From positions 26,909 through 90,908 of the forward strand of contig CALQIX020000002.1 in the NCBI GenBank assembly GCA_943330745.2: DNA of 64,000 nucleotides, written 5' to 3'. This stretch comes from Lishizhenia tianjinensis. GTDB lineage: Bacteria > Bacteroidota > Bacteroidia > Flavobacteriales_D > Crocinitomicaceae. Shown here piece by piece: positions 26,617-53,681 of the stretch (position 1 is its first letter; each line of letters starts with the position of its first letter). Position numbers and translations under genes: made by a program. The notes under the pieces are model-generated. The model ran no database searches. It saw only the letters and a program-made list of their open reading frames with translations, and was not told the origin of the DNA.

Positions 26617-26967
26617 CTATATTTTAAGTTCTTCTTCCGGATCCCAAAAATGCAATTTGAAATCAATGATTTGGTCAGCAACGACTTTCAACCCGTCTTT
26701 TTCTAGGCTCTTTTGCATGTCGTCTGGTGAAGAAAAGTGCATTTTTCCAGTCAAAAGTCCATTTCTATTCACTACCCTATGAGCAGGAATTTCCGGTTGA
26801 TTATGACAAGCATTCATAGCCCAACCTACCATTCGCGAAGATTTTTTTGCGCCTAAATAATTTGCAATTGCACCATAAGATGTTACCCTACCTTTAGGAA
26901 TTTCTTTCACAACGGCATAAACTTGCTCAAAGAAATCTTTACTAGTATCAGATAAACGACTAATCAT
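26617..26967 (-). CDS. alkyltransferase-like (ATL) protein of the MGMT DNA-binding-domain family, lacking the acceptor cysteine
   Basis: 116 aa with a winged-helix MGMT C-domain. The PCHRV active-site motif reads IPAHRVV (Cys replaced by Ala). Confidence 0.8.
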   Translation of the reverse strand: MISRLSDTSKDFFEQVYAVVKEIPKGRVTSYGAIANYLGAKKSSRMVGWAMNACHNQPEIPAHRVVNRNGLLTGKMHFSSPDDMQKSLEKDGLKVVADQIIDFKLHFWDPEEELKI

Positions 26968-38252: not shown

Positions 38253-39772
38253 GGAATTAGTAGCTTTTGACCAATTTGTAGGTTATCGTTTTTCAATCGA
38301 TTCGCCTTTTTAATTTGTGCTACAGAGACTTTGTATTTTGCGGCTAATCCATAAAGAGTATCGCCTTTTTTCACCGTGTGACTTTTCGTTTTAGCTATCG
38401 GTTTTTTCACTTCTGGTTTTTTAATTACTGGAGGTGTTTTTATTTCCGTTTTGGGTTTATCTACTTTCTTAGGTGCTTCTAGTGCCGGCTCAATTTTCTT
38501 GGGCGCTTCTGCCGTTGTTTGCACAATGTCTTTCGATTCTGTGTAGGCCAACAAAAGCTCAGAAACAGCAGGGTTTTTTTGAATGGAATCCATTGAGTTT
38601 TTAATTGCTTCAAAAAGTAATTGTCCTTTTAATTCATATCCCTTGCTGGTTAAATGCACCAAGTCTGTTTGCGCATATCCAGCATCTCTCCATTTAGTCA
38701 ATGATTTTTTTCCACCAGCTACAGCATACCAATCCCAGAAAAGGCACTTATTTTTTTTTGCTAAGGAGTCAACTAAATTCCGAAAGGTAATTCCCTCGGT
38801 TACATGTTTCGACTTGTAATATAAATCTTGTGTACTCGTTAACAAAATCAATGCTTTTGGGCACATAACCCGCAAATCGGTTATAATTTTTTCTATTTGT
38901 ACGCCTAATTCAGGTTTTACTTGATTGTCATAGAGGTAATTATTTGTTCCAAAGTCTAATACAATCAAATTGGGTGAAAGTGCAGGCAATTGATCATCCA
39001 AGAGTTCTTCTAATAATAAAGAGCCGTATTGAGATGCACCAACACCCACAGAATGGTATAACACTCCTTTTTTGGAAGGAGTTTCCAAGGACATTCCGTA
39101 GAATTCAAACTGATTTTGAGTTGCTCTATTTTGAACTGTTTCCAATGTAAAACTTGTTTGATTACCAATAATTGGAATTTCAATGTAGGGCAAGGATGAC
39201 GATAAATAATCAGCCAATTTAATGCGAATTGTTGCCTCGTTCGTGATTAAATTGAAATCAAAAGAGGAAGTATCTTTTTTAATAAATACTTTCAGATTTT
39301 GATAGCTTGGAGATGGTTTTTTGAGTGTAAAGATGAGTTTGACATTTTTTTCGTCTGTGCGAACAGTCATTCCCGTTACACCGAGTGGTAATTTGGGTGC
39401 ACTCTGAAAGCTTTTTGCATAGGTCCAATTCCCGGTGTGACTGGTAGAATATAATACAGAAGAGTATGAGTTTGCGGCAGAATAGGCGAACATCATTCCT
39501 TTTCCACCATCTCCGTATTCAGCTTGAAGGGTTTTACGTGTGACTGCAGTTGGGTTTTCCGCTTGAATATGACTATCACCAAAATGTACAATCGTAAATC
39601 CATTTGTTTTTGCCCCTTGTAAGCCAGTAACTAATTTTTTCACCAAAGTAGGATCATTGAACTGAATGAAGTTATAGTTTTTTTTAACGTGTAAGGCATC
39701 AGGAATTGACGAGGTTTGAGCGAAGGAGCAAGTCCAACTCAATGTGCAAAGTAAGATTAGGAATTTAGTCAT
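38249..39772 (-). CDS. secreted SGNH/GDSL-like hydrolase with C-terminal LysM domain
   Basis: Signal peptide begins at the ATG at 39772 (MTKFLILLCTLSWTCSFAQ). Has a GDSH block (VHFGDSHIQ), a Lys/Pro-rich linker and a LysM domain (HTVKKGDTLYGLAAKYKVSVAQIKKANRL). The track start at 39814 adds 14 aa. Confidence 0.8.
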   Translation of the reverse strand: MTKFLILLCTLSWTCSFAQTSSIPDALHVKKNYNFIQFNDPTLVKKLVTGLQGAKTNGFTIVHFGDSHIQAENPTAVTRKTLQAEYGDGGKGMMFAYSAANSYSSVLYSTSHTGNWTYAKSFQSAPKLPLGVTGMTVRTDEKNVKLIFTLKKPSPSYQNLKVFIKKDTSSFDFNLITNEATIRIKLADYLSSSLPYIEIPIIGNQTSFTLETVQNRATQNQFEFYGMSLETPSKKGVLYHSVGVGASQYGSLLLEELLDDQLPALSPNLIVLDFGTNNYLYDNQVKPELGVQIEKIITDLRVMCPKALILLTSTQDLYYKSKHVTEGITFRNLVDSLAKKNKCLFWDWYAVAGGKKSLTKWRDAGYAQTDLVHLTSKGYELKGQLLFEAIKNSMDSIQKNPAVSELLLAYTESKDIVQTTAEAPKKIEPALEAPKKVDKPKTEIKTPPVIKKPEVKKPIAKTKSHTVKKGDTLYGLAAKYKVSVAQIKKANRLKNDNLQIGQKLLIP

Positions 39773-39957
39773 GTTGATTTTACAGCAAGTTAAGAAAATG
39801 TTAGTCACAGTCAAAATTAGTTTCGAGTATCCAGATTTTTATTTAGTATAATTAACTAAAAATGGAAATGTTACTTTTTATCAGTAATACTCTAAAGAAG
39901 ATTGAATTGTTTCAATCTTACGCTGTTTTTTACCATGAAAGTTCTATTCGAACTGAT

Positions 39958-40010
39958 ACCCCACCTTTTTTGAGACAATGAGGGAAGATAAATAAATTCC
40001 TTATTCATTT
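39958..40010 (-). repeat. copy A (degenerate) of a 3'-end repeat family; also a 53-nt direct repeat with 41349-41401
   Basis: ccccaccttttttgagacaatgagggaagataaataaattccttattcatttt is 42/53 identical to copy B. It overlaps the last codons and the stop of the ATPase gene. Confidence 0.7.
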
Positions 40011-41248
40011 TCGAGTAACCACGTGAATACGTTCAAGTGTTTAATTCCAAATCGATCCTGGGTAAAACTATCAGTTGTTAGCAAAAATTTCGGGTAATTA
40101 TCACGGATTTTTTCCAAAGATCGGAACTCACGTTCGCTTGTTTTTTCATCGGATAATTGCCAGGCCACTTGAAAGTAATTAATATGGCCACTTGGTGTTT
40201 TACAAACATAATCTACTTCCGAATTTCTATCCGTTCCTGTCCAAATTTTATTCCCCCTACGTAACAACTCCAAATAAACAATATTCTCAAGAATATGGCC
40301 CCGGTCTGTTATTCGATCTTTCCCGACGAGAACATTTAATAATCCTACATCAACGAGATAATACTTTTCTTGAGTCGCTAGCTGTTTTCTGCCCTTCAAA
40401 TCAAAACGATTTACCTTGTAAAACACGAAGCTTTTTTCTAAGTATTCTAAATATTGTTCTACTGTGGTATTGTGTGTAGTTTGGCCATCTTGTTTTAACG
40501 TTTTAGCAATGTTACCAGGTGATAATGCACTACCAATGTTGGAAGCAACAAATTTGACAATATTTCCAAAAGCTCGTTTATCATTAATTTGATGGCGTTG
40601 AGTGATATCTTTTTCAATAATTGTGGTATAAATGGCTTCCAGATACTCAAAAATTTTGTCGTAACCCCCTCCTCTTAATTTCACGCCAGCAGGCAAAGAT
40701 GTTTCATTTACATATTCAAAAAACAAGGGTTCATAATTGAGATACTTGTTTTTAACGTCAATTTTCCGTGCTTCAAGATACTCGCTGAATGAAAAAGGCA
40801 AAATAGAAATCTCAATATAACGACCACTTAACAATGTCGCTAATTCTCCACTTAATAAAAATGCATTAGACCCCGTTATGTAAACATCAATATTGGGTTT
40901 TACGAATAACCCATCTACCAAACGCTCGAACTGATTTACATTTTGAATTTCATCTAAAAAAACGTAACATGGTTGTGATAAATCTAATTGGTCAATGATG
41001 TATTTATATAAATTGTCGATATCATCAAGAAATGTCCGCAATTCCATTTCCTCAAAATTCAAAGAAACGATTTGTTTTTTTTTGACACCTTGTTTCTGTA
41101 GCTCAGATCGAAACATTTCTAAAAGCGTAGATTTACCAGATCGCCTCAATCCAGATACTACTTTAATCAAGTCCTGATCTTTGTATGATAAAAGTTTTTC
41201 AATGTATTGTTTTCTACCCGTGTATTTAATCATGTAGCTAAAATACAC
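40001..41248 (-). CDS. AAA+ ATPase of the AAA_14/DUF4143 (COG1373) type
   Basis: Walker A GLRRSGKSTL, Walker B VFLDEIQ, and a C-terminal DUF4143-like region. An in-frame ATG at 41233 is an alternative to the GTG at 41248. Confidence 0.8.
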   Translation of the reverse strand: MYFSYMIKYTGRKQYIEKLLSYKDQDLIKVVSGLRRSGKSTLLEMFRSELQKQGVKKKQIVSLNFEEMELRTFLDDIDNLYKYIIDQLDLSQPCYVFLDEIQNVNQFERLVDGLFVKPNIDVYITGSNAFLLSGELATLLSGRYIEISILPFSFSEYLEARKIDVKNKYLNYEPLFFEYVNETSLPAGVKLRGGGYDKIFEYLEAIYTTIIEKDITQRHQINDKRAFGNIVKFVASNIGSALSPGNIAKTLKQDGQTTHNTTVEQYLEYLEKSFVFYKVNRFDLKGRKQLATQEKYYLVDVGLLNVLVGKDRITDRGHILENIVYLELLRRGNKIWTGTDRNSEVDYVCKTPSGHINYFQVAWQLSDEKTSEREFRSLEKIRDNYPKFLLTTDSFTQDRFGIKHLNVFTWLLENE

Positions 41249-41341
41249 AATAAATCATTAAAACTTGCATTTTTTACGAGTTTTAATGATTGTAACAATT
41301 CTAATCCAACAAATATCTGCGTTAAGAAAATTACAGAAAAC

Positions 41342-41401
41342 AAAAATTCCCCACCGTTTTGAACGCGATGATAGAAGATACATAAATTCATTATTCATTT
41401 G
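41342..41401 (-). repeat. copy B of the 3'-end repeat family (hybrid: the half at lower plus-strand coordinates resembles copies C/D, the other half resembles copy A)
   Basis: aaaaattccccaccgttttgaacgcgatga, followed by tagaagatacataaattcattattcattt. It lies 24 nt downstream of the YhcG-remnant stop. Confidence 0.7.
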
Positions 41402-41424
41402 TAAACTACGAATAGAATACACTC

Positions 41425-41605
41425 TCATTTTTTACCAAACAACTCAATTTCCAATTCTGAAACAGTTGGCATATCTTCTTTTAATTTTTCGCTTTTTTTA
41501 ACCAACAACAATAGGATATTGCCGTTCAACAAATGCAAAACCCTTACCCAATTCAAGCAAAAATTTTGTGATATTTTCAGTCAGGTTCTTTTCTATTCCT
41601 GTAAT
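41425..41605 (-). pseudogene. internally deleted, N-terminally truncated remnant of a YhcG/DUF1016-type PDDEXK nuclease gene
   Basis: The minus strand of 41605-41501 reads ITGIEKNLTENITKFLLELGKGFAFVERQYPIVVG, bounded by stops, and matches the DUF1016 LLELGxGFAFVGRQ motif. A different frame at 41472-41428 reads MPTVSELEIELFGKK*, resembling the family C-terminus. The PDDEXK core between them is missing. Confidence 0.55.
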
Positions 41606-41663
41606 TTAACATTGAGACATTTTCATCATCTAATTTTTGGTTATTTACAAAAATTAGATTCAA

Positions 41664-42521
41664 TTAATTTTTTGGTACATACTGCTTATTACCCTTACTA
41701 TTAATTTTATAAATTCCCCCTCGTTTTCCACGATACAAACCCTTTCCACAGGAATTACATCCACCTCCCAAGTAATCACTGCCCACAGTCAATTTTTGAG
41801 CCCACCATTCTTGGTATTCCTCAAACGACATCCCCATCTTCACCCATTCTGGATAGTTATCCGAAATAGCCTGATACTTTGCATCAATAGCCGTTTTCTC
41901 GATCCAATTAGAAACTTCAATAATTTTTTTTACACTAATATCATAGGTTAATTTATCGAAGCACGTGTCGCGAAAAAACTTAAGTCTGTAAAATTGATTT
42001 TCAGCGATCATTTGACCCGCTAAAGCAATGTTAGATGCTGACTTGAACAGTTTGTGTGCTTTATCGATATCTGTGTTAAACTGTTTCTGCAGAGTTGTAT
42101 TAAATTGGCATTTCAATTTGGATATTTCCTTTGAAAATGAATACCAACCCAAATCGCTGCTTGACAAGTAATAATCAAGATCGTCCAAAAGTTTTATGTT
42201 CTCAATAGATACAATGTAGGTTTTGGATTGAATTTCTACCTTGGTCAATTCAATGAGTGTATCCGAAATATAATTTAAATAACCCAAGTAATTAAGCACA
42301 TTGGTATCGCCTTGTTGAGACCTTTCACTCAAGACCTGAGTCAATTCCTCAAAATTGGATTCCAAAAACAAAGAATCTAGAATAACCATATCAGATGCAT
42401 CTTTATTTGTCTGGGTAATATTCGCTTCTTTTGCGGTGTTTGATTGGCAATAGGAAGTGAAATGAACTAGAAATATTGTCAAGCACATTAAATGTATTGC
42501 AATGATTTTTTCTTTTAGCAT
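41664..42521 (-). CDS. secreted hypothetical protein with C-terminal PBCV-type basic adaptor-like motif
   Basis: Signal peptide (LMCLTIFLVHFTSYCQ). The C-terminus GKGLYRGKRGGIYKINSKGNKQYVPKN resembles the G-x-RGG-x-Y-x-I-x3-G-x-K-x-YV motif. Confidence 0.6.
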   Translation of the reverse strand: MLKEKIIAIHLMCLTIFLVHFTSYCQSNTAKEANITQTNKDASDMVILDSLFLESNFEELTQVLSERSQQGDTNVLNYLGYLNYISDTLIELTKVEIQSKTYIVSIENIKLLDDLDYYLSSSDLGWYSFSKEISKLKCQFNTTLQKQFNTDIDKAHKLFKSASNIALAGQMIAENQFYRLKFFRDTCFDKLTYDISVKKIIEVSNWIEKTAIDAKYQAISDNYPEWVKMGMSFEEYQEWWAQKLTVGSDYLGGGCNSCGKGLYRGKRGGIYKINSKGNKQYVPKN

Positions 42522-42548
42522 TGTTGTTGATTTGAAATTAGAACATAG

Positions 42549-44744
42549 TTATAACCCAAGTTCTTTTCGTATCACTTCAAAAGCACTAGGATTTACACCG
42601 CCGCTTACAAATTCTCCAAAATCATTAAGAATAATTGTTTTGACGTTCATATTCAACTCAGGGGAAATTGCATCTAAAGGAAACTTCAAATAAAGATCTT
42701 TAGCCTTTTTCAAGTCTCCGTTTAACAAATAAGCATGTGCCAAATTCAATGTGATCATGATGTTGTCATTCGATACTTTCGTTGCCTCTTTTAAAAATTT
42801 CGCAGCAACCTGATACTCAAAATTCAATAAACAACGCCAACCCAATGAATTCAAAATTGATATTGTTTTCTCCCCTTTTATGTAAGCATTGTAATCATTT
42901 AAAAACCTTGTTTCACCGTTATTGTAAGAGATAATGAAAAGATCCAGAGCAGTATTATCAACTGTATTCGAATTTTGATTCAAAACAGGAATCAAATCAT
43001 TCGAATTCGTCAATAATTTATATTTCCCTATGAAGTCTGCTCTGTTTGTCCTTAATGACAATTTGATTATTCTCAGTTCATCAAGTATACTTGACAACTG
43101 AATTTTATCCGCAGCCCAGATTGAATCGTTCATTTTATTCAATTGAAGCATATAATCGTTTTGATAATAAGCTTTTAGATTGGTCTTTTCCATTGCCTGA
43201 TTGTACCAATCTTTCAAAACTTTATCATTAAGACCTGACATGAGGAAATCATTACAAATACTTTTAAAATAAGCAGATGCTAAAATTAAATCATGCTTAA
43301 TTTCAAATACTAGAAAACTCTCTCTATCAAAATTGGCAACATTTTCTAAATAAACTTTTGGTTTTTCATTTATGTAAAACCAAGGTGTTGAATTCGGTAC
43401 GATTTTACTCAAGTTCAAAATATTATTTTTATTCTTTAATAAATAGTTGGCACGTGCGTCAGTATTAACCATTTCCAAAGCCACGCTATATTCTAATGCG
43501 TCAAAATTAAACTTATCTTTTTTTGGATCGTATGAACTAAAAATCCAAAATTGAGTGTTGTTAAAAAGTTGTGATAAAAGTGAATTCTTAAAATCTAGTG
43601 AACTTACCAAATATGCCAAAGCCAAAGCATTGCTCGAATTGGCCATTTCTTCGCTATACATTGCGTTTTGATCAATTAGCATGTTTTTCACCTCAACCGG
43701 AACCATCCAAGAACTAAAAATAGAATTATCTACGTAATCCGAAAATACAACATTTGAGTACTTAAATCCTTCGTTTGAAATATCAATTTTCAACTGATTC
43801 ATTTGCACAGCAAACTCCATTAATTTAGGTTCAAGAGCTAATTTATGACTTACCATATTGTAATTATACATAGGATTGCTATTCGATAAATCTGTGAACT
43901 CCTTTGAAATCATTAAATGCCAATTGGCATATGCACATTTCAAATATGCAATAATGGATCGACTTCTGTTCAGCAAGAAAACTTCATAACAGACAGGCCG
44001 CAGTCTTTTGAACATTTGAAGTTCTACATTGAGAAAGGATGATGGAAGGAATGCATCTATTACACGAGCATCCCAACGTTTGAATGGCTTTGAATTCACT
44101 TCAGTTGAAATCTCTTCAAAATATCGAATTCCCTCTGTCAGCAGTGCATTTTTCTTTTCTTGAATGCTATTCATTTGTTTCAGAAAATCCATTTCTGGTA
44201 TACCTCTAAAGTTGTTCATCTTGTTGAATTCTACATTCAACACATCTAATCTTTCATAGAAATTGATCAAAAAAAGCTCGTAAACACATTGAAATTCAGT
44301 TCGGTCATTGTAACCGTCATGTTCATCAGTGAAGACTAAATCATGAATTGAAGCTTTTATTGTGTTGAATGACTTTAATGTCGTTTCACCCTTCGAGATC
44401 ATTTTCTTATAATACTCTTGACGTTCTTCCACCGTTTGTGAATATGACACAAAAGGACAAGTCCCTATAATACAGGTCAACATGACAATCTTAAAAAGAT
44501 TTTTCATTACTGAAAAATGACCAAACTTTTCTTTAACTTGACTAAAAATGATGTCCATTCCTTCTTTAATTTTAATGAGAAACTTACTCTTGAAATTGAT
44601 GATTGATTCCATATTTACAGTACTATTTAGGGAGATTAAAAAATTAATTTTGCTTTCTTTACCATTTTTCAGGATTAATCCAACTTCAAATTTTAACTGT
44701 TCTTCTGGTGATAATTTCTGCATAATCGTTTTTTCGAGAAGCAA
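42549..44744 (-). CDS. hypothetical protein with internal signal/anchor sequence and C-terminal TPR-like repeats
   Basis: The hydrophobic stretch MKNLFKIVMLTCIIGTCPFVSYSQ begins at residue 80 (ATG at 44507). The real product is therefore either a 652-aa secreted protein or a type-II anchored protein starting at ATG 44723 or TTG 44744. The C-terminus (LNLAHAYLLNGDLKKAKDLYLKF) is TPR-like. Confidence 0.6.
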   Translation of the reverse strand: MLLEKTIMQKLSPEEQLKFEVGLILKNGKESKINFLISLNSTVNMESIINFKSKFLIKIKEGMDIIFSQVKEKFGHFSVMKNLFKIVMLTCIIGTCPFVSYSQTVEERQEYYKKMISKGETTLKSFNTIKASIHDLVFTDEHDGYNDRTEFQCVYELFLINFYERLDVLNVEFNKMNNFRGIPEMDFLKQMNSIQEKKNALLTEGIRYFEEISTEVNSKPFKRWDARVIDAFLPSSFLNVELQMFKRLRPVCYEVFLLNRSRSIIAYLKCAYANWHLMISKEFTDLSNSNPMYNYNMVSHKLALEPKLMEFAVQMNQLKIDISNEGFKYSNVVFSDYVDNSIFSSWMVPVEVKNMLIDQNAMYSEEMANSSNALALAYLVSSLDFKNSLLSQLFNNTQFWIFSSYDPKKDKFNFDALEYSVALEMVNTDARANYLLKNKNNILNLSKIVPNSTPWFYINEKPKVYLENVANFDRESFLVFEIKHDLILASAYFKSICNDFLMSGLNDKVLKDWYNQAMEKTNLKAYYQNDYMLQLNKMNDSIWAADKIQLSSILDELRIIKLSLRTNRADFIGKYKLLTNSNDLIPVLNQNSNTVDNTALDLFIISYNNGETRFLNDYNAYIKGEKTISILNSLGWRCLLNFEYQVAAKFLKEATKVSNDNIMITLNLAHAYLLNGDLKKAKDLYLKFPLDAISPELNMNVKTIILNDFGEFVSGGVNPSAFEVIRKELGL

Positions 44745-44873
44745 ATAAACAAATAAAAATCACCCCTATTAACGGCAACTAACTGCAACTAACCTGGGTG
44801 CTAAAAAGTAATCGTATTTTCGGGTGTAAATTCTTTTCTTTGTTTCATAAAGGATAAAGAACCTCTTAAAAAG

Positions 44874-44916
44874 AAAAATTCCCCCACCGTTTTGAACGCG
44901 ATGAGGGAATGCAGCG
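44874..44916 (-). repeat. copy C of the 3'-end repeat family; terminator-like hairpin on the minus strand
   Basis: 37 nt (44880-44916) are identical to 50108-50144. The minus-strand RNA folds CCCUCAUCG-(9 nt)-CGGUGGGGG (7 Watson-Crick and 2 G-U pairs), followed by AAUUUUUCUUUUU. It lies 12 nt past the stop of the 1099-aa gene. Confidence 0.65.
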
Positions 44917-44928
44917 ATTTGTTAATTT

Positions 44929-47900
44929 TTATTGCTTGATGAGCTTCGTTACAGCTGAACTATTTTCAATTGAAAGGTAGTATGCGCCACGAGCAACATG
45001 TTGCAAATCAATTTGCTCTTGGGTGGAAGTAATTTTTCCATCACGAATCGTTCTACCCGAAAAATCACGAATTGAATACCTTTTTCCAACTAGTTCTAAT
45101 GAAACCTCAAACGTAATGTTGCTGTTTGTTGGATTGGGGTATACAAGAATGTTTGTGTTCACGACTTCTATCACGCCCGATACGCCATTGTTTACGATGT
45201 TTGAACGTGATACTCCGTAATTCACTATTTTAGTTGGATCACAATTTACTGGATTTACGACCTCAATTTGGTAATACAAAGGGCCTGTTGGAGGAGATAA
45301 ATCTGTATATGAGTTCAAATTGCTTTGAATGGTTGTGAGTAAACTGATATTTGATGGATCTGTTCCTCTGTAAATATTGTAGCTACCAAAGGTTAAACCT
45401 TCGTAATGACTCCAAATTAAGTTCCATGCTCCGCCAATTCCTTGGTTGATAGTTAAGTGAATGGTTTTGTGGAAATCACCAACATTAGTTTCAACACCAC
45501 ACGTGTCTTTCGCTGAAATTTTATAGCGATAAGCCTGTACAGCAGGGTTTGAATTTACATCAAGGAAAACTGCCAATTGGTTATAATCCGTTGCGCCAAT
45601 CTTTGTGTAAATATTGGAAACGTTGGTTTCTTTGTACACATAGAAGGAATCAATTCCTAATGTTAAAGGTTTCTCCCACACCACTCGATTTTCATTGGTT
45701 AAGGAATCTACTCCCACGATACAGACTTGCGGAGCTGCCATAAAGGAAGCATTTACAGCAAATGGATTGGAAGTTTGTGAACAGCCATTGGAATTGGTTA
45801 CCGAAACAGAATAATTTCCAGATTGTGAAACCACCAACGAACTTGCCGTTGAACCGGTATTCCATAAATAGCTACTGAAACCACTAGGAGCAGTTAAAGT
45901 CATTGAACCTCCCGAACATGGCGTAATGGTTCCACTAGAGGAAATAGTTGGAACTGATGGAAGTGGATTAAACGTTACCGAAATACCAGCCGAAGTTACA
46001 GGACAATTGTTTTGATAAATGGTAACGGTATATGAACCACTTTGAGTTGGGTAAAATGAACTAGTTGTTGCTCCGCTTACTGGAATTCCATTTCTGTTCC
46101 ATTGATAGGTGAATGATGGATTCGTGTTGCAACTTAACAACAGTGAATCTCCTACACAGCCGCTCAAAGGACCAGTTTGATTAAGCGTTGCGGTATGTGT
46201 GCAAGTAACTCCGCCTATCACAAAAATTAGATCATTGAAGGTTTGTGAACTCGAACAGCCCGTTGTTAGGTTATCAGCAACAACGGTGACATCGGCATAG
46301 CCGTTTTGCGTATAAATGTGACTCAAGAATGGCGCATTGGATTGCTGAGAGGTTCCATCTCCGAAATACCATGTAAAATTATAGTTGCTCAAGTTTTGTG
46401 TTTGATTGGCAAAAGCTACATTGAGTGGGGCATTACCAAAAGCTGGGTTGGGGGTGATGGAGATGTTGTCGTTGGTATTTACATTTAAAGTAAGCGTTAC
46501 AACACTATCACAACCAAATTGATTTGTCAATGTTTGCGAATATTGACCTGGTTGAGTGTATTGTTGCCCGTTCCACGTGTAAGTGTCGCCGTTGCAGATA
46601 GTTGCGGAAAAAGAGGAAACAGAATTTAAGATGGTTAAATTTATTTCTAATATTACACTATCACAGTAATCTTGATAAATTGGATGATTATAAAATAACG
46701 CTTCATAATAGATTCCTGTTTCTGAATAGGATTGATTAGTTGGAGAAATATAGGGACTGCAAGAACTAACATTCATTATTTCAGTTGGAACAGTAGGTAA
46801 TTGTACATTTATATTTAGATAAACACTATCACAACCAGAAATATCGTCAATAACTTCAAAATAACTACCTGGACCATACGTCACTCCAGAAGGTGAAACA
46901 TAAGGAAAACACCAAGATGCAGCAGTATTTACTGTGTCAGAATATGGTGCACATTGCTTGAGTCTAATAATATTATTTGAATTATTTGAATTGAAAGTTG
47001 AAAACGCTCCTCCGGCAATTATTTTTCCATCTGACTGCAAACCTAATGAGTTTACCGGACCATTAAAAGCAAGGCCTGGATTAAACGTATTATCAATTGT
47101 CCCATCAGTATTAATACAAATAAAATTTTGATGATTATAGTACATATATAATGGATAATCTCCGGTCTGAATTGCCCAGAGACCCACACCTCCCATGCAA
47201 CCATTATAAGAAGGGTCATTGCAATTATCATTCATCCATGAACCTCCTATTATAAATTTTCCATTAGGCAAAGCAACAACTGATTGAGAATCTCCGTTAA
47301 TTTGAACATTGCTTGCAAATGCATTGTCGACTGTTCCATCATTTTGATTTAATAGATATGCAATAGGGTAAGGCCCGCAACAGCCTAACGCTCCGACCAC
47401 TATAATTTTGTTGTTAGTAAGTATTTTAAAATCATATACGCCTCCCCATGCCAAGTTAATAGGAGCAGAAAATGAATTATCAATTGTTCCATTTGAATTA
47501 AGTCTAATAATATCAGAAACAGCTATATTATTGAAATAATTTATAAAACCTGAAACAATTATTTTGCCATCACTCTGCACTGATATGCAATAAACATCTC
47601 CCACACTTACAGTTCCAGCGCTTGGATTTATTTGCATCATTATACCAGTGCCGGGATTAAAGGTTGTATCTAAAGACCCATCAGGATTTAGTCTCAAAAT
47701 AGAGTTGCGAAACGCACCATTATATGCCGAAAAGTAACCACCAACTAGTATTTTTCCATCGTTTTGGACACAAATTGCCCCAATGTTACAAAATACATTT
47801 TGATATACATTCTCACTAAATCCCGTTCCAATATTAAATGTTAAATCAATAGTACCATTAGTATTAAGTCTGACAAGGCGATTTCTTGTAAAACCATTAA

Positions 47901-48228
47901 ATTCAGTAAAACGGCCACCAACTAAAATTTTTCCATCATTTTGAACTGCAATGGCATCAACTGTACCATTAAATCCACTTCCAATATCAAATGAATTATC
48001 CAGAGTTCCATGTGAATTTAACTTTACTAAGCGATTAGCCGTTACACCATTATAAGTTGTAAAATCTCCTCCAATAATTAATTGGTTATTAGGTAATACA
48101 ACAATACCACTTCGCCCTGTTGCCCCGTTTAATCCAGCTCCGTTTATAAAAGATAAATCTTTATAAACATTTTGAGAAAAAATAGAAAATGAAACAAAAA
48201 AATTAAGTATAAACAGAATTACTTTCAT
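44929..48228 (-). CDS. large T9SS-secreted protein: N-terminal delta-60/DUF5122-type beta-propeller repeats, Cys-containing modules, PKD/Ig-like domains, T9SS C-terminal sorting domain
   Basis: Signal peptide. At least 6 repeats of G-[TS]-[LIV]-D-x-[ST]-F...DGKI[LI]VGG. CDSV-containing modules, a PKD-like FGDGT, and C-terminal VYPNPTNSNITFEV...YYLSIENSSAVTKLIKQ. Confidence 0.85.
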   Translation of the reverse strand: MKVILFILNFFVSFSIFSQNVYKDLSFINGAGLNGATGRSGIVVLPNNQLIIGGDFTTYNGVTANRLVKLNSHGTLDNSFDIGSGFNGTVDAIAVQNDGKILVGGRFTEFNGFTRNRLVRLNTNGTIDLTFNIGTGFSENVYQNVFCNIGAICVQNDGKILVGGYFSAYNGAFRNSILRLNPDGSLDTTFNPGTGIMMQINPSAGTVSVGDVYCISVQSDGKIIVSGFINYFNNIAVSDIIRLNSNGTIDNSFSAPINLAWGGVYDFKILTNNKIIVVGALGCCGPYPIAYLLNQNDGTVDNAFASNVQINGDSQSVVALPNGKFIIGGSWMNDNCNDPSYNGCMGGVGLWAIQTGDYPLYMYYNHQNFICINTDGTIDNTFNPGLAFNGPVNSLGLQSDGKIIAGGAFSTFNSNNSNNIIRLKQCAPYSDTVNTAASWCFPYVSPSGVTYGPGSYFEVIDDISGCDSVYLNINVQLPTVPTEIMNVSSCSPYISPTNQSYSETGIYYEALFYNHPIYQDYCDSVILEINLTILNSVSSFSATICNGDTYTWNGQQYTQPGQYSQTLTNQFGCDSVVTLTLNVNTNDNISITPNPAFGNAPLNVAFANQTQNLSNYNFTWYFGDGTSQQSNAPFLSHIYTQNGYADVTVVADNLTTGCSSSQTFNDLIFVIGGVTCTHTATLNQTGPLSGCVGDSLLLSCNTNPSFTYQWNRNGIPVSGATTSSFYPTQSGSYTVTIYQNNCPVTSAGISVTFNPLPSVPTISSSGTITPCSGGSMTLTAPSGFSSYLWNTGSTASSLVVSQSGNYSVSVTNSNGCSQTSNPFAVNASFMAAPQVCIVGVDSLTNENRVVWEKPLTLGIDSFYVYKETNVSNIYTKIGATDYNQLAVFLDVNSNPAVQAYRYKISAKDTCGVETNVGDFHKTIHLTINQGIGGAWNLIWSHYEGLTFGSYNIYRGTDPSNISLLTTIQSNLNSYTDLSPPTGPLYYQIEVVNPVNCDPTKIVNYGVSRSNIVNNGVSGVIEVVNTNILVYPNPTNSNITFEVSLELVGKRYSIRDFSGRTIRDGKITSTQEQIDLQHVARGAYYLSIENSSAVTKLIKQ

Positions 48229-48242
48229 AAAAATATTATTAG

Positions 48243-48785
48243 TTAAAAATTAAACAGCCCTGAAAGATTCCTCGGATTAGTTTTATTGATTAATTGTATT
48301 TGCGGAAAACGTTTCTTGAACAGAAATATCAAATCGTTTTCTAATCGATGTATCGGTTTTTCAGAATTTTGAGAGTTGCTATTTTTTATAAGCACCTCTT
48401 TAGAAACTGCGAATAAAACCACTTTTGACTGTAAAAAAACTTGTTGGTTATTTATAAAATAATCTTTGTTAACCTCTTGATGACCGAGCCCTTTGAGGAC
48501 AGCATTAAATCCGCCCCATCTTCTCCCATCAATATGTTTAGCAATTCGTTCCAGCAAAGTGCAACTACTCGCTTTGCCTACATAATATTTTCCATCTGTA
48601 AAACGAAAGATATACATACCATTTTCGTGAAGTTCATCGTCAAATGTGATTCCTCTTGTGTAGTCTAAAAAATTAAAATCTTTTAAAACTACACTGTAAT
48701 CACTTTCCAAATGATTGATTATACGATCAACCAATGTAATATCTGCAACGTTTTGCCAACTAGGTAAAAAAAGACTTTTCTTCAT
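48243..48785 (-). CDS. GIY-YIG nuclease-superfamily domain protein (~180 aa)
   Basis: GMYIFRFTDGKYYVGKASSCTLLERIAKH gives GIY-x9-YVG-x(n)-R-x3-H spacing, and a later Glu context sits in HRLENDLIFLF. The ATG at 48785 lies downstream of a -7 box, whereas the track start at 48824 lies upstream of it. There is no signal peptide. Confidence 0.65.
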   Translation of the reverse strand: MKKSLFLPSWQNVADITLVDRIINHLESDYSVVLKDFNFLDYTRGITFDDELHENGMYIFRFTDGKYYVGKASSCTLLERIAKHIDGRRWGGFNAVLKGLGHQEVNKDYFINNQQVFLQSKVVLFAVSKEVLIKNSNSQNSEKPIHRLENDLIFLFKKRFPQIQLINKTNPRNLSGLFNF

Positions 48786-48801
48786 TTTCAAAATTTCACT
48801 C

Positions 48802-48809
48802 CAAATATA
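48802..48809 (-). promoter_or_regulatory. candidate -7 box for the GIY-YIG / 1099-aa protein unit
   Basis: Plus strand caaatata equals minus-strand tatatttg, 17 nt upstream of the ATG at 48785. Confidence 0.4.
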
Positions 48810-48828
48810 CCCCCCTCCAACCACTCTT

Positions 48829-48871
48829 CTTGCTTCACTCTTGCTTCACTTTATGCTTCGTTAGTGCTTCG
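48829..48871. promoter_or_regulatory. four helically phased TGCTTC boxes in the divergent intergenic region
   Basis: TGCTTC occurs at 48831, 48842, 48854 and 48865 (spacing 11/12/11 nt). The first two lie in a perfect tandem cttgcttcact x2. The last two lie in ta(g)tgcttcg x2. Confidence 0.45.
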
Positions 48872-48896
48872 ATTGATATATCTTCTATTTTTGTTT

Positions 48897-50003
48897 ATGC
48901 TAAATGCACTCAAAAGTGAATTGGAAAAGAAAGTGGGGTTTGCGCTCGATTCGTTTAAGAACTGTCGGCGCTTAGAAAACCTACTGCAACACAAAGGGCT
49001 CTACATTTCCTACAGCAGTTTGGCGCGCATGTTTTCGGTTGGCAACAAAACCACAGAACCGAGACTTTCCACACTCAACGAATTGAGTGTTTTCTTAGGG
49101 TATCAATCGTATGAGCATTTTAACCAATTCAATGAGAATTCAGCCGAAAAGTTGGAAGCCTATACACGCAAGGTCTTGGAAATGAAATCGGAACTGTTTT
49201 TCGGTAATCGCCTCAAAGGACTGGAACTATTTATTGATATCCGTAAAAAGTTTGGGTCATTATCTGATTTGCTTTCGCAGGAACTTGCCCTGCATCTTTT
49301 TAATAAACAGGATCTACCAAAAAACGAACTGGAACACCTCGTGGCTAAGGGTATTACTGAAGTGAATTTCATGGATTTTTTCATCTACGAAGACGACCCC
49401 TTCGGACATTACGAATGGTTTATTCAACATGCTTCTGGAGCTCAAAAACAAAGTCAAGATTTTCAACACTTCAAGAATCTATTTTCACAGCGAAAAGAAT
49501 TATTGAAAGGCAAGACCACAGTTGAAAAAGCTTTGCCAATCCAAAACATCAATCAATCTGTTCATCTGTATGCTAGAATATTGGAAATCGAAGTCTTGCA
49601 AATGGCTGCAAACCAACCTAAAAACTTGTTGGAGTTTTACCAGGAGCGCCTCGATCAAACTATCAGCTTATTGAAAAATCGCCACGAATACGATAAAATA
49701 ATAGTTCTTGGCAGGCTGTTTCGCGCTGCTTGTCATACAGGAATCGATAAAAAAATACTTCTGGACAATGAAACCAAGCAATTCTGCGTGGAGGTAATCA
49801 ATTCAAATGCCCTAGAACTTGAATTTCAAGCGCCCATTTACGCTGTCCTGAAAAATGATCCGAAATTAAATTTAAGCTTAGCTTTCTTGCACAACAATTA
49901 CTGGAAAAACGCACAATTTGAGTCTGAAATGTTAATAGCCAGAGCATTGGGCCTGAAAAAAGTATATGAAACGTATAAGAAAGGAGTGTTAAAGAAAACC
50001 TAA
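48897..50003 (+). CDS. XRE-like HTH protein with ~300-aa helical C-terminal domain, paralog 1 (3' end frameshifted relative to paralog 2)
   Basis: The N-terminus KVGFALDSFKNC...ISYSSLARMFSVGNKTTEPRLSTLNELSVFLGYQSYEHF follows the XRE HTH pattern and aligns to 52453-53667. The ATG at 48897 is preferred to the GTG at 48864, which lies inside the TGCTTC boxes. Confidence 0.6.
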   Translation: MLNALKSELEKKVGFALDSFKNCRRLENLLQHKGLYISYSSLARMFSVGNKTTEPRLSTLNELSVFLGYQSYEHFNQFNENSAEKLEAYTRKVLEMKSELFFGNRLKGLELFIDIRKKFGSLSDLLSQELALHLFNKQDLPKNELEHLVAKGITEVNFMDFFIYEDDPFGHYEWFIQHASGAQKQSQDFQHFKNLFSQRKELLKGKTTVEKALPIQNINQSVHLYARILEIEVLQMAANQPKNLLEFYQERLDQTISLLKNRHEYDKIIVLGRLFRAACHTGIDKKILLDNETKQFCVEVINSNALELEFQAPIYAVLKNDPKLNLSLAFLHNNYWKNAQFESEMLIARALGLKKVYETYKKGVLKKT

Positions 50004-50053
50004 ATTCATTTGCCCAAAAAACCGGAAATAGTTGGGTGCTGAATGTGTTGAAA
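49995..50053 (+). repeat. right-end patch, copy 1 (near-identical to 53606-53664)
   Basis: 50007-50053 is 46/47 identical to 53618-53664 (catttgcccaaaaaacSggaaatagttgggtgctgaatgtgttgaaa). Here it lies just after the stop codon and out of frame. Confidence 0.85.
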
Positions 50054-50102
50054 ATAAGTTGTTACACACTATTTCTTAATCTAATAACCTTCCGTTTAGC
50101 GT

Positions 50103-50144
50103 AAAAATCCCCCACCGTTTTGAACGCGATGAGGGAATGCAGCG
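50103..50144 (-). repeat. copy D of the 3'-end repeat family; terminator-like hairpin on the minus strand
   Basis: The 37-nt core is identical to copy C. On the minus strand the hairpin is followed by AUUUUUAC. It lies 18 nt past the stop of the 699-aa gene. Confidence 0.65.
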
Positions 50145-50162
50145 CAAATATTTTATGGTTTA

Positions 50163-52262
50163 TTATTTTATTGTTCGGACAGCTCTGAAAGCTGATCTAG
50201 TTACACCCCCCACCCAGAAGAGATTATTAACCCAAATTGGCTGTTTACCAGGACTTACAAATTGTAAACATTCATAATATGTATATGTTTCTTCTCTGTC
50301 TTGTGGGGCTCTACCTAGACCAACAAGAACATTTTCCTTTACAATAGTTTTAGAAAATGTTTCACTAGTAAAATACAAATTGTAGTTTTTTCCATCATGA
50401 AATGTAGATTTATTTGAAACACAAAGAGAATCATAAATTAATTTTAATTCATCTTTAGTGGGCAATCTCCATCCTTCTCCCAATTTAGTACAAGTATAGT
50501 TAAGAGCTTCAAAATTAAACTTATCTTCAACATATACAGGAAAATCAAATTCAGCTACTTCTATGTTACCCAAAATAAATGGTTTGCCAATTATTTCTTC
50601 TGCGAACTTTTCACCAAAATAAGAAGGGTGCGACCGCTTATCGATGACTTTGCCATCCATTCTGTAATATAAGTGCATCAACACATCTTGTACCCATTGC
50701 GAGCCCTTGTAATATCCTTGTTCGTGGTATTCGAAATAATCACCAAAAAAATGATCTTGTGCCTTAGAAAGAGTATCTATATTTCCTTTAGACTTTAGAC
50801 TACCAGATGGATAATACAACTCAAATGTGCCTTGATTCTTATTGTTTTTTATTGAATTCATTTGTTTTTTTCTTCCAAGAGAATCGTATAAATCTCTTTT
50901 TGTCAATGAACCGTAATTGTAAGTTTCAATATTTTTTTTATCTGCATTTCTTCGAGATTTTTCAATTTCAGTTGCATATTCTTCGTTGAGTATTTCTTTT
51001 GGTTCTTTCGTTGTATGATTCCAGTATAAAATTTCATCTTTGTGTTTTTTCCCTTTCAAATATGTTGTTTCTCGCTCCAAATTACCTGATTCATAATACG
51101 CTATTTCAAATCCATTCTTCAAATCATTGAAATAGGTTGTTTCTAGCTTTTTATAACCGTTTTCGTAAAAAAGTGTCTCCTTTTTATTATGTGCCTCATC
51201 ATCTCTTTTTATGGTTTTCCCCGTATTATGATCATAATTTGACTCAAGATTTAAAACATCATAAAAACTCGTAGTTTGAGTCAAAGTACCCAACTCATTA
51301 AATAGAGATAATTTACTTTTTTTATTTTCTAGAAACTCTTCCACTTTAGAAATCTTGCCATTCTCATAAAATATTGAATCAATACTTCTATTTTCATTTG
51401 GTAATTTATATTCTACTCGGTTAATTTTACCGTCCTGGTAGCTTGTTTTTCTATTTTCTGTAACAACACTCGACAGCAAGTTATTTATATAAAATCGCTT
51501 TTCTCCATGTATTTCCTCTAAGAGTTTGTTCTCGTTTTGGTCAAAATGCGTTATCGATAATGGAACATATATTTTTATCATTTTCTTTTTTCCATTTTTA
51601 TGGAACGCTGTATATGGGCCAACTATTCGCTTTGGATCACTTCCACTACCTTGATAATTTTCAATTTCAGCAATAATACCTACATGTACTTGTTTTGATT
51701 TTTCTCGTTCAATGGTTGTTGCAAGAACCTGTAGATTGCCTAATTTTTTTTGTTGAATTTCTTTTTTGTCTTTATGATTCTTTATTAAAGACTGACCTTT
51801 ATCCCATAGTGTTTTTGAATCATCTTTCAAATTTCCGTCATTCGCTTTTGCTTGTATTTTTTCCCATTTTTTTACCCCGCCAGCATCTTCTAATATGAAA
51901 AGTGACAACTGATTATTACTTTCAACTGTATCCTTAGTGGCATGAGAGCATTCCTCATCGAGCAAGGATTTTTCGACCAATAATTTAGTTAATAACAGGG
52001 TGTCCTGAAACTTTTCTGTACTAAAAGCTGAATCCAAATAAAATGTTTTATAAAAACCAAATAAAACACCATTTTTCACTTCAAAAATTGATTTGATTTG
52101 TTGATTATTAAATCGACTGATTACTAAGCCGTTATATGGCTTTTCATTTTTATAATGCCATCCATCATTATCAATTTTTAATTCCTTTTCTTCTGTTATG
52201 AGCTGTGAAGTAGCTGTGAGATGAATAAAAACTAAAACAAGAAAAATAAAAAGTGTTTTCAT
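50163..52262 (-). CDS. secreted protein with MORN-variant (YwqK-like) repeats and C-terminal DUF1566/Lcl-C-like domain
   Basis: Signal peptide. Repeated G-x-x-x-x-[FY]-[YH]-x-N-G-type motifs throughout. The C-terminus CTKLGEGWRLPTKDELKLIY ... AFRAVRTIK matches the DUF1566 pattern. Confidence 0.65.
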   Translation of the reverse strand: MKTLFIFLVLVFIHLTATSQLITEEKELKIDNDGWHYKNEKPYNGLVISRFNNQQIKSIFEVKNGVLFGFYKTFYLDSAFSTEKFQDTLLLTKLLVEKSLLDEECSHATKDTVESNNQLSLFILEDAGGVKKWEKIQAKANDGNLKDDSKTLWDKGQSLIKNHKDKKEIQQKKLGNLQVLATTIEREKSKQVHVGIIAEIENYQGSGSDPKRIVGPYTAFHKNGKKKMIKIYVPLSITHFDQNENKLLEEIHGEKRFYINNLLSSVVTENRKTSYQDGKINRVEYKLPNENRSIDSIFYENGKISKVEEFLENKKSKLSLFNELGTLTQTTSFYDVLNLESNYDHNTGKTIKRDDEAHNKKETLFYENGYKKLETTYFNDLKNGFEIAYYESGNLERETTYLKGKKHKDEILYWNHTTKEPKEILNEEYATEIEKSRRNADKKNIETYNYGSLTKRDLYDSLGRKKQMNSIKNNKNQGTFELYYPSGSLKSKGNIDTLSKAQDHFFGDYFEYHEQGYYKGSQWVQDVLMHLYYRMDGKVIDKRSHPSYFGEKFAEEIIGKPFILGNIEVAEFDFPVYVEDKFNFEALNYTCTKLGEGWRLPTKDELKLIYDSLCVSNKSTFHDGKNYNLYFTSETFSKTIVKENVLVGLGRAPQDREETYTYYECLQFVSPGKQPIWVNNLFWVGGVTRSAFRAVRTIK

Positions 52263-52389
52263 TATAGGATTTGATTTTTAATAACTAATTCATTACTCTG
52301 TTATTTAACAAAAAGTCTATATATTAAGATGTAATTATTTTATTTCAAATCTACTTAGTTATCATAAAATCTTGCTTTGACTTTCATTT

Positions 52390-52406
52390 CAACTTGTTCC
52401 AAGTTG
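52390..52406. promoter_or_regulatory. 17-bp palindrome upstream of HTH paralog 2 (candidate operator)
   Basis: caacttg-ttc-caagttg has perfect 7-bp arms, 47 nt upstream of the ATG at 52453. TTGYTY boxes occur at 52372, 52394 and 52404. Confidence 0.3.
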
Positions 52407-52452
52407 CTCTACGCTGAAAAACTGTTAACTTTAAATACCTTTTTTTGTTTGT

Positions 52453-53667
52453 ATGGGCACAGATGCTGGTCTTGATAAGAATATTCAGAAGTTAAAGAAA
52501 AACCTTGAGTTCAAGTTGGGGTTTGCTGTCTTGACTTACCATGACTGTAAAAAAGCATCCGCGCGGCTGAAACTGGACAAGATTTCACTTTCACCGCTTA
52601 CAATTGGTCGTTTATTTTCTGTTTTCAAAGACACAAAACGCCCCTACAATAGTACCTTAGATTTACTCACTCGTTTTTTGGGCTACGAATCTTTTTCTTC
52701 GTTTTGCATAGACACTTCCGATTTGGTAGGTACTCGCTTGTACAATCCCTCGTTTGAAATCGTAAATGGATCTTTTCAAGCCTTGGAACTAGCCTGCCAG
52801 CAAGCAGATTGGAAAATGGTAAAAACAATCTTGGAAGAAATTAATCCCCACAAAGACGACTATGAATTCCCCATGTTTTTGGGAAATATTGTTAGAAACC
52901 ACCCAGAGCGCAACGATTTTATTAAAGCACTTATGGATGTAGAAGTAGGAAGAGTTTATTTCTTTGAACGCTTCGTAGATGAAGACGATCCAGACGGCTA
53001 TTTTTCGCATGCGCTTACTTCGTTTTGTTCGAATTACCGAAGAGATATTGGCAGTCAAATTTTTAAGGTCTGTTTTCAATTGGCTAAGCAGATTTATCAA
53101 GAAAATAAATTTAACGTATCTGAATGGAGGACCTTTGAACAGATGGGACTGAATTTGAAAGAGTTACACTTTCATCAAATTTCGCGCTGGTTTGAATTAA
53201 AGTTACTCTTTGCTTCACGAGAAATAAATCCTTTACAAAAAACCCAAAAAATTATTGCCGAATTGTTTGAAATTTTACCTCATTACAGCAATGGTGATCA
53301 ATGTTGGATTCTGGCAAGACCATTGAAAGCCCTGGCACACATGGGTTTATTGAATGAAGTACTGAGCGTTTCAGAAATAAAAGAGCGTGTTTTTAACGTG
53401 TTTATTGCTATGGATGGCCGCGTTTCTTCAATTGGAGATTTGATAGTTCAATTTGTTTGCCATGCCTATGTTGATACACAACAAACAGTGAGTAATCCAA
53501 AATCTATTTCTGCATCACATTTCAATGAAACATTTAGCCGAATTGCCATTGAATCTGCCACGTCGTTATTGTATGTTCAGGAACCTACAAGAAACCGTAT
53601 TGAAAAAAACCTCAAACCATTTGCCCAAAAAACGGGAAATAGTTGGGTGCTGAATGTGTTGAAATAA
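52453..53667 (+). CDS. XRE-like HTH protein with helical C-terminal domain, paralog 2
   Basis: KLGFAVLTYHDC...SLSPLTIGRLFSVFKDTKRPYNSTLDLLTRFLGYESFSSF aligns to paralog 1. Shares the EDDPxGxY motif. The intact C-terminal tail is KPFAQKTGNSWVLNVLK. Confidence 0.6.
   Translation: MGTDAGLDKNIQKLKKNLEFKLGFAVLTYHDCKKASARLKLDKISLSPLTIGRLFSVFKDTKRPYNSTLDLLTRFLGYESFSSFCIDTSDLVGTRLYNPSFEIVNGSFQALELACQQADWKMVKTILEEINPHKDDYEFPMFLGNIVRNHPERNDFIKALMDVEVGRVYFFERFVDEDDPDGYFSHALTSFCSNYRRDIGSQIFKVCFQLAKQIYQENKFNVSEWRTFEQMGLNLKELHFHQISRWFELKLLFASREINPLQKTQKIIAELFEILPHYSNGDQCWILARPLKALAHMGLLNEVLSVSEIKERVFNVFIAMDGRVSSIGDLIVQFVCHAYVDTQQTVSNPKSISASHFNETFSRIAIESATSLLYVQEPTRNRIEKNLKPFAQKTGNSWVLNVLK
53606..53664 (+). 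repeat. right-end patch, copy 2 (encodes the last ~16 codons of paralog 2)
   Basis: See 49995-50053. In this copy the patch is in frame and ends at the stop codon. Confidence 0.85.
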
Positions 53668-53681
53668 AAAGGAGTGATCTG

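Follow-up and report, generated by a model that had tools for sequence, protein, structure and literature searches.

The DNA analysed here (the window, 64,000 nt, positions 26909–90908 of contig C2 of genome G000) comes from Lishizhenia tianjinensis, represented by a 3.06-Mb metagenome-assembled genome (MAG) in 54 contigs; the records of its relatives are MAGs from freshwater that bear the labels Crocinitomicaceae, ‘Lishizhenia’ or Flavobacteriia. Between window positions 39815 and 53681 lies an island of 13,867 bp that interrupts a cell-envelope gene cluster, MBOAT-DHHW-SGNH/LysM, on the minus strand. To the right of the island are the genes for an MBOAT (DltB/AlgI-like) acyltransferase (54998–56407; TIGR04091, 6e-44, below the cut-off of that model) and a DHHW protein (53682–54998; Pfam DHHW, 9.2e-47), and to its left is the gene for an SGNH (GDSL) hydrolase with a C-terminal LysM domain (38249–39814; Pfam Lipase_GDSL_2, 2.7e-10, and LysM, 1e-18). 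The three genes probably encode a glycan O-acyl-transfer system that combines an MBOAT protein with a DHHW/AlgX-like and an SGNH protein. The island itself carries a DUF4143-type ATPase gene, the remnant of a YhcG nuclease gene, two orphan genes (p285 and p731), genes for a small GIY-YIG-like protein, a type IX secretion system (T9SS) substrate and a MORN-repeat protein, two paralogous genes that we call parA and parB, and four copies of a 27-nt sequence, the core.

The interval is a genuine insertion whose content varies between strains, and it divides a conserved envelope operon. In seven relatives (G011, G010, G008, G026, G004, G012 and G009) the SGNH/LysM gene, the final gene of the cluster, directly follows the DHHW gene, and in six of them (G010, G008, G026, G004, G012 and G009) all three genes are contiguous and co-oriented. 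G011, whose flanking genes are 73% and 66% identical to those of the window, passes from DHHW to SGNH/LysM across a spacer of 16 nt by tool coordinates, or about 40 nt to the first ATG. An island at the identical junction, with other genes inside, is present in two close relatives. That of G080 (~7 kb; flanks 87–92% identical in nucleotide sequence) consists of the ATPase, a core, a 1195-aa T9SS protein, a 160-aa PD-(D/E)xK-like protein and parB, and that of G041 (flanks 95% identical) of a core, a DUF1016_N remnant, a core, a 426-aa Fib_succ_major protein, parB, a core and the 3′ end of the ATPase gene. Two partial contigs, L044 and L053, also have an occupied site of differing content (in L044 the order is MORN protein, core, a second DUF4143 ATPase, core, ATPase, SGNH), and further gene combinations were seen in metagenome and MAG contigs. 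The content of the site is variable: it is empty in seven relatives and different in G000, G080 and G041, the combination by which a flexible island is recognized. This bears out a preliminary description of the DNA, which had placed an accessory island between the SGNH/LysM gene and the DHHW/MBOAT pair and had named synteny comparison as a check. A leader upstream of the SGNH gene (module ‘L2’, 39815–39959, minus strand) is borne by the island; it is common to G080, G041, L044 and L053 and missing from the empty site of G011. Splitting of the envelope-modification operon by the island may alter expression of the SGNH/LysM gene.

As the source genome is a 54-contig MAG and the junctions coincide with repeats of 27–68 nt, the arrangement could in principle be a chimera, in which metagenome assembly joined strain variants at shared repeats. 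An independent 288-kb ENA scaffold, derived from a different sample, repeats the array order of the window with 99.9% identity over 20.8 kb, as does a JGI contig with 97.1% identity over 6.8 kb; seven contigs carry this order in all. Its recurrence in the independent scaffold and the JGI contig indicates that the order is not an assembly artefact, and we consider a chimera extremely improbable.

The core (CCCACCGTTTTGAACGCGATGAGGGAA) lies in all four cases 3′ of a minus-strand unit and in direct orientation, at 39960–39986 (r1), 41350–41376 (r2), 44883–44909 (r3) and 50111–50137 (r4). The four copies of a short repeat that had been listed for the interval are therefore present; three are close to one another in sequence (r3 and r4 perfect, r2 with two mismatches) and the first is degenerate. 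On the minus strand the core forms a hairpin with an 11–12-bp stem and a 9-nt loop, an imperfect palindrome of 11 + 9 + 11 nt. In r3 a 12-bp hairpin with two G·U pairs is followed by a run of U (−19.9 kcal/mol, z −2.5), and in r4 a hairpin is likewise followed by a U run (−21.3 kcal/mol). The hairpin is strand-specific, since the two G·U pairs of the stem would be C·A mismatches on the plus strand. Cores stand about 20–45 nt past minus-strand stop codons (about 20 nt for r3 and r4), and a run of five to seven T residues is kept by nearly all of 29 distinct copies from other loci despite their differing downstream flanks. A hairpin and U run at the 3′ end of a gene, as found at r3 and r4, suggest that the core acts as an intrinsic terminator on the sense RNA. 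The hairpin of r2 is weakened; r1 has a weak fold and no U tract, having lost it through a 19-nt deletion common to G080 (window 39940–39990; L033 about 8590–8640). One may speculate that loss of the U run at r1 could permit transcription of the ATPase gene to continue into SGNH/LysM, cut off from its own operon by the insertion.

The sequence conserved at many cassette ends is 27–43 nt long. No further copy of the core, even with five mismatches, is present elsewhere in the 3.06-Mb genome, and pattern searches outside it found the core in seven of 100 other genomes of the genus, in eight GTDB records and in seven metagenome contigs. A repetitive extragenic palindrome with its associated transposase (REP/RAYT) was considered and ruled out, as the core is not genome-wide and G000 has a single Y1 transposase, on contig C7. 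An Rfam scan of positions 38000–56000 at E ≤ 1 gave no match, and the core thus belongs to no known RNA family. A simple terminator scan, which accepts loops of 3–8 nt, did not pick up the core with its 9-nt loop. Comparison of copies revealed no clear compensatory double changes in the stem; variants mostly keep or convert wobble pairs and some copies are degraded, a pattern that would neither prove nor disprove the structure. Longer direct repeats accompany the cores, namely a 55-nt pair at 39956/41346 (80% identical) and a 53-nt pair at 41324/44857 (77% identical), the latter as previously reported.

Flanks re-assort at the core. Sequences of 200 nt on each side of 39 core occurrences from 23 sources (the window and 22 loci, with several loci duplicating the same records) were clustered. 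One left flank, the ATPase promoter, is joined at the core to six different right flanks, and one right flank, the 3′ end of the T9SS gene, is joined to four different left flanks. Homology between arrays breaks off at cores (39959, 41371, 44869, 50103 and 50137), 95–116 nt upstream of par genes (48769, 52337 and 52344) and once within the T9SS gene (46469). Compared with L064, a segment of the window comprising the gene for the 193-aa GIY-YIG-like protein, the gene for the 1099-aa T9SS substrate and r3 (44705–48825) replaces a gene for a 257-aa protein between parA and the p731-p285 pair.

Cassettes are also shared across species. The ATPase is 95% identical in G014, parA 95.5% in G008 and parB 85% in G104, whereas the phosphoglycerate kinases (Pgk) of these genomes are only 60%, 62% and 55%, and their aldehyde dehydrogenases 80%, 83% and 78%, identical to those of G000; the cassettes (85–95.5%) thus lie far above core-genome identity as gauged by Pgk (55–62%). 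The ATPase cassette from core to core (39959–41371) is 92.8% identical in nucleotide sequence to that of G014, and in three metagenome contigs it stands between two perfect cores 1390 nt apart. Arrays occupy at least two further chromosomal sites in the lineage: one between BNR and CrcB, downstream of a BNR/Sortilin gene (G104, G014, L049, L051, L052 and L064), and one next to an SSF transporter gene, between GcpE and SSF (L062). G000 itself has, between GcpE and the SSF transporter (C5:66700–74800; L055 6732–14804), two par-family genes and no cores. Each par gene is paired divergently with a gene for a small lipoprotein-like protein; one of the two lipoprotein-like genes is followed by the gene for an 880-aa T9SS protein with 73% identity to residues 485–1098 of the 1099-aa protein of the window.

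Several of these features would suit a core that is a site-specific recombination site. The array would then be a cassette platform like an integron, dependent on a recombinase that is unlinked or unrecognized, with par in the position of intI and new cassettes entering beside it. Every core is in direct orientation with one per cassette, in G014 and the metagenome contigs the ATPase cassette runs exactly from one core to the next, one core is common to unrelated genes, its form is that of an imperfect palindrome, and relative to L064 the GIY-YIG-like gene, T9SS gene and r3 have been inserted in the first slot beside parA. However, no tyrosine or serine recombinase and no Y1 transposase is encoded on contig C2, and the six PF00589 matches in G000 are on other contigs, so that no integron integrase adjoins the array; the model of par is all-alpha, without a significant match in the PDB (best Foldseek E 0.23) or any match of recombinase type. 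An attC site has the organization R″-L″…L′-R′ with GTTRRRY at its base and is usually at least 55 nt long; the core, judged by inspection, is much shorter, has an 11–12-bp stem with a 9-nt loop, and carries its GTT/AAC triplets in the loop and not at the base of the stem. Many of the breakpoints are not at a core but in par-proximal intergenic regions or inside one gene, par modules occur at other sites without any core, and there is no core in the empty sites or in 93 of 100 genomes of the genus. No positive evidence speaks for a site-specific, integron-like mechanism, which we regard as unlikely, if the most plausible of the alternatives. In a more specific form of the idea, the terminator hairpin would also be where cassettes attach in a new exchange system of Flavobacteriales whose integrase is unlinked, with par or an unrecognized trans-acting enzyme as the integrase and cassettes entering beside par under a par-controlled promoter; this we consider quite unlikely.

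The composition of the island is native-like. Its GC content is 0.339, compared with 0.352 ± 0.013 in equally long stretches of the genome, which places it at the 12.6th percentile, and its tetranucleotide distance is ordinary. The comparison of composition that had been proposed as a check on the insertion hence does not set the island apart, nor does it refute the insertion. A foreign origin of the DNA is unsupported by composition; native-like composition is consistent with exchange within the lineage. Searches of contig C2 found neither an integrase nor a resolvase nor a Y1 transposase; the matches of G000 to such enzymes (six to PF00589, a resolvase and a single Y1 transposase) fall on other contigs. 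Pfam and Rfam scans of the interval gave no recombinase, transposase or RNA family, with no search aimed at tRNAs having been made. A prophage was rejected as a candidate: PHROGs gave only a PKD-type ‘tail protein’ match on the T9SS protein. A decayed integrated mobile element (prophage, integrative and conjugative element or transposon) would explain an insertion with degraded genes and direct repeats. We consider it very improbable, since the island has no integrase or transposase, phage or conjugation genes and no tRNA target was seen (tRNAs were not specifically scanned), its composition is native, and close relatives differ module by module rather than by the unit as a whole.

Genes of the par family recur in the arrays as the heads of modules. 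parA (48864–50003, plus strand) encodes 379 aa and parB (52453–53667, plus strand) 404 aa; both proteins belong to an all-alpha family without a Pfam model, are about 21% identical overall, and parA is divergent from its cargo. The 3′ end of parB forms the island's right margin, at a distance of 14 nt from the stop codon of the DHHW gene, and homology of the window with G104 stops at 53677. The cargo next to a given par gene varies. parA is 95.5% identical at the protein level in G008 and 90% in L064, with different cargo in each, and one parB (85–98% amino acid identity) heads three cargos: the MORN protein, the Fib_succ_major protein, and a nuclease-like protein with a T9SS protein. The 3′ ends of the two par genes share a conserved 68-nt segment (49986–50053 and 53597–53664, plus strand; 90% identical), which had been described as a 59-nt pair and is longer than that; such identity suggests gene conversion or a functional DNA or RNA element.

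The par family is large, with 2,216 cluster representatives at E ≤ 0.001, and all 61 parB homologues are unnamed; among 81 genomes of the order, full-length members were seen in this genus alone. An AlphaFold2 model (mean predicted local distance difference test score, pLDDT, 85.5) is all-alpha, with a 90-residue N-terminal helical domain followed by an alpha-solenoid. Searched against the PDB with Foldseek, the full-length model gave no significant match; the best non-significant ones were TPR-like folds, AimR and MalT domain III, with template-modelling (TM) scores of about 0.3. A search of PDB sequences with the par profile found nothing. The par proteins had been called helix-turn-helix (HTH) paralogs, a label for which no Pfam or NCBIfam profile match was obtained; the best match of the N-terminal model (pLDDT 84) is the HTH protein EspR, at a non-significant level (TM 0.46, E 2.2). 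The par N-terminal domain is also found fused to a NACHT/STAND-type NTPase and TPR regions in proteins of 690–845 aa (P0171, P0175, P0187 and P0193). Upstream of parB, at a distance of 47 nt, is a perfect palindrome of 7-3-7 form (CAACTTGTTCCAAGTTG, 52390–52406), which is kept in the parB-type intergenic regions of G080, G041, G104 and L041 and has one perfect copy in the genome. The region upstream of parA contains TGCTTC direct repeats. Both motifs fall within that stretch of the intergenic region which is nearest to par and conserved.

Of the island's 12 kb of coding sequence, about 7 kb specify proteins with signal peptides or T9SS sorting domains. The largest is the 1099-aa T9SS substrate (44929–48228, minus strand), in which profile searches identified a DUF5122/delta-60 beta-propeller, PKD and Por_Secre_tail. 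As in a T9SS type A substrate, its C-terminal sorting domain matches both Por_Secre_tail (38.5 bits, cut-off 27) and TIGR04183 (37.2 bits, cut-off 23), and the genome encodes the T9SS translocon protein SprA (contig C14). This gene is a mosaic: the C-terminal 522 aa are 91% identical in G080 and the N-terminal half is different. Across arrays, the same C-terminal 522 aa (a PKD/Ig-like stalk and the sorting domain) are 82–92% identical, and the N-terminal propeller region varies in sequence and length, giving totals of 829–1195 aa (compared with L033 10047–13634). The secreted MORN-repeat protein (699 aa; 50163–52262, minus strand) has a C-terminal Lcl_C/DUF1566-like domain, with weak Pfam matches to MORN_2 and Lcl_C; it is the cargo of parB, and orthologues of 66–90% identity adjoin parB in G104, L041 and L044. 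The orphans p285 (285 aa; 41664–42521, minus strand) and p731 (731 aa; 42549–44744, minus strand) both have signal-peptide-like N termini. Searches of Pfam, NCBIfam, PADLOC and PHROG assigned neither to a family, apart from a weak C-terminal TPR match in p731, and full-length p731 is present in none of the 100 other genus genomes searched, two of which have matches to its C-terminal TPR region. In L064/L065 and L062 the p731-p285 pair adjoins a divergent par gene and is thus par cargo in relatives.

Upstream of the T9SS gene is the gene for the GIY-YIG-like protein (193 aa; 48243–48824, minus strand), small, of cytoplasmic type and probably starting at M14. Its match to PF01541 (20.2 bits) is below the cut-off of 22.6; ten of 19 members of its family match this model (best 2.5e-5), the motif G-x-Y…Y-V-G together with R93 and E162 is invariant in the family, and a sequence search of the PDB found no match. 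In G080 and other arrays this gene is replaced upstream of the T9SS gene by one for a PD-(D/E)xK-like protein of 145–160 aa (L033 13644–14126, with equivalents in L047, L049, L052 and L053), which has the motif GEYAV…D-IIIVD…IEVKT and a weak NOV_C match. Two unrelated nuclease-like small proteins thus share one slot.

The ATPase cassette and the YhcG remnant are of defence type. The AAA_14/DUF4143 ATPase (415 aa; 40001–41248, minus strand) was identified by Pfam and matches the PADLOC profile PDLC04787 of candidate system PDC-S01 over its full length (E 4e-146); the anti-phage activity of PDC-S01 is reported as awaiting validation (PMC12988326). A second DUF4143 ATPase cassette is present in relatives. 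G000 has eight further DUF4143-type paralogs (21–46% identity) on contigs C38, C11, C6, C26, C19, C36, C1 and C15. Only a remnant is left of the YhcG/DUF1016 PDDEXK nuclease cassette (41377–41605, minus strand): a 3′ untranslated region and two gene fragments, lacking the N-terminal ~208 codons and 254 internal nt. One fragment, 35 codons bounded by stops (41501–41605, minus strand; FLLELGKGFAFVERQYPIVVG), matches YhcG_C with 36.7 bits (cut-off 32.5; 4.9e-9), and no intact DUF1016_N + YhcG_C frame exists in the window. In G008 an intact YhcG gene (354 aa) has a core on either side. Contig C11 of G000 also carries a second YhcG-like gene, which is intact.

With the decayed YhcG next to its intact counterpart in G008, the shared C-terminal and different N-terminal half of the T9SS gene, and the re-assorting core flanks, the terms ‘degraded and mosaic’ used in the preliminary description are apt. 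Its gene inventory holds for the ATPase, the YhcG remnant, the signal-peptide pair, the T9SS substrate and, on weak matches, the MORN/Lcl_C-like protein; GIY-YIG is below cut-off and no profile supports the HTH label. It had also called the interval hypervariable or defence-type. The first is correct; the second is so in part, for a PDC-S01 candidate, a dead nuclease and possibly GIY-YIG, most of the coding sequence being given to secreted or surface proteins and putative regulators. Its statement that no known defence system is recognizable needs the qualifier that the ATPase matches an unvalidated candidate.

On such grounds the locus might be chiefly an anti-phage defence island of undescribed systems. 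Beside the PDC-S01 match, the YhcG genes and the second ATPase cassette, the small GIY-YIG-like or PD-(D/E)xK-like proteins upstream of the T9SS gene and the fusion of the par N-terminal domain to STAND-type NTPases elsewhere would fit this. The ATPase, however, is the sole match of the island proteins in PADLOC, to a system that itself awaits validation (PMC12988326), and it is one of a group with eight other members in G000; about 7 of 12 kb of coding sequence goes to signal-peptide and T9SS proteins (propeller/PKD, MORN/Lcl_C and, in G041, Fib_succ_major). We therefore find a defence island decidedly unlikely as an account of the whole, and the best reading of the cargo is surface proteins with a few defence-type genes.

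We favor, with a probability of roughly 0.7, an additive flexible genomic island that was assembled through recombination, mostly at terminators common to the cassettes or in the intergenic stretches next to par, and occasionally within genes. The island would consist of self-contained transcription modules of two kinds. In a par module, a putative regulator with an HTH domain and an alpha-solenoid, provided with its own repeat or palindrome as operator, would be divergent from a variable secreted or surface cargo; the single-gene cassettes would be the DUF4143 ATPase, the YhcG nuclease and, in relatives, the second ATPase. Many cassettes would end in a common intrinsic terminator of 27–43 nt. 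Arrays of co-occurring relatives may then recombine at the shared terminator, at the par-proximal part of divergent intergenic regions and within conserved stretches of genes (the C-terminal half of the T9SS gene is one), so that cassettes would be added, deleted or replaced, and later decay may have produced the YhcG fragment and the degenerate r1. With this additive island we infer a regulatory role for par, homologous rather than site-specific recombination, and an adaptive role in surface and defence variation.

Several points weigh against this reading. A patch of 27–43 bp is short for RecA-dependent exchange, and homologous recombination gives no account of how the core first arrived behind unrelated genes. 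As the empty sites examined have no pre-existing core, the first insertion between DHHW and SGNH needs at least one illegitimate or site-specific event. The terminator activity of the core is a prediction. A DNA-binding role of par would derive from weak evidence, a non-significant structural match; the STAND-type NTPase fusions may be consistent with a regulator without being proof of one, and the conserved palindrome is a candidate operator only. Finally, all genomes are MAGs or metagenome contigs, with strain-level linkage inferred from assemblies.

Much strain-level diversity in aquatic bacteria resides in flexible islands, and the exchange of cassettes without integrases or tRNA sites is poorly understood. 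The present locus is a clear example from an abundant, uncultured freshwater lineage, with an empty site, at least three fillings, cassettes at other sites and in other species, and one terminator at many junctions. It suggests that shared terminators and regulator-proximal regions may provide movable patches of homology, or possibly recombination sites, through which modules are exchanged, and it brings out par as a new protein family that recurs at the head of surface-protein modules.

Among known systems, integron arrays and clusters of attC sites lacking integron-integrases (CALINs) resemble the locus in having co-oriented cassettes, each followed by an imperfect-palindrome repeat, in variable order and shared across hosts. 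In contrast to these, the island has no IntI, its repeat of 27–43 nt lacks the R″/L″/L′/R′ organization, its cassettes carry their own 5′ regions, and breakpoints also fall off the repeat. Phage morons are promoter-gene-terminator blocks between operon genes, and in the related ‘boundary sequence’ idea short conserved junctions could mediate exchange; the island has similar units and junctions between operon genes, but its context is chromosomal and non-viral and a single terminator is reused many times. Minimal mobile elements of Neisseria and pdif modules of Acinetobacter are recombinase-less modules exchanged between conserved flanks or short sites. Discrete modules without a recombinase of their own are found here too; unlike pdif sites, the core is not dif-like, and its copies are direct rather than alternating in orientation.

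The closest likeness is to the additive flexible genomic islands of aquatic bacteria, for which Alteromonas is the model (PMC4898812, PMC4033161). As there, a fixed hot spot holds differing cassette combinations in related genomes, near-identical cassettes occur in divergent species, and the cargo concerns niche, surface and defence. A tRNA, integrase or integron usually marks such an island, without being obligatory; here none marks the site (tRNAs were not specifically scanned), and the hot spot is within an operon. A literature search on conserved terminators as cassette boundaries found no precedent. What sets the locus apart from the Alteromonas islands, and is unusual about it, is that many cassettes share one conserved 3′ terminator, reused as a cassette boundary, and that par genes recur as the heads of modules.

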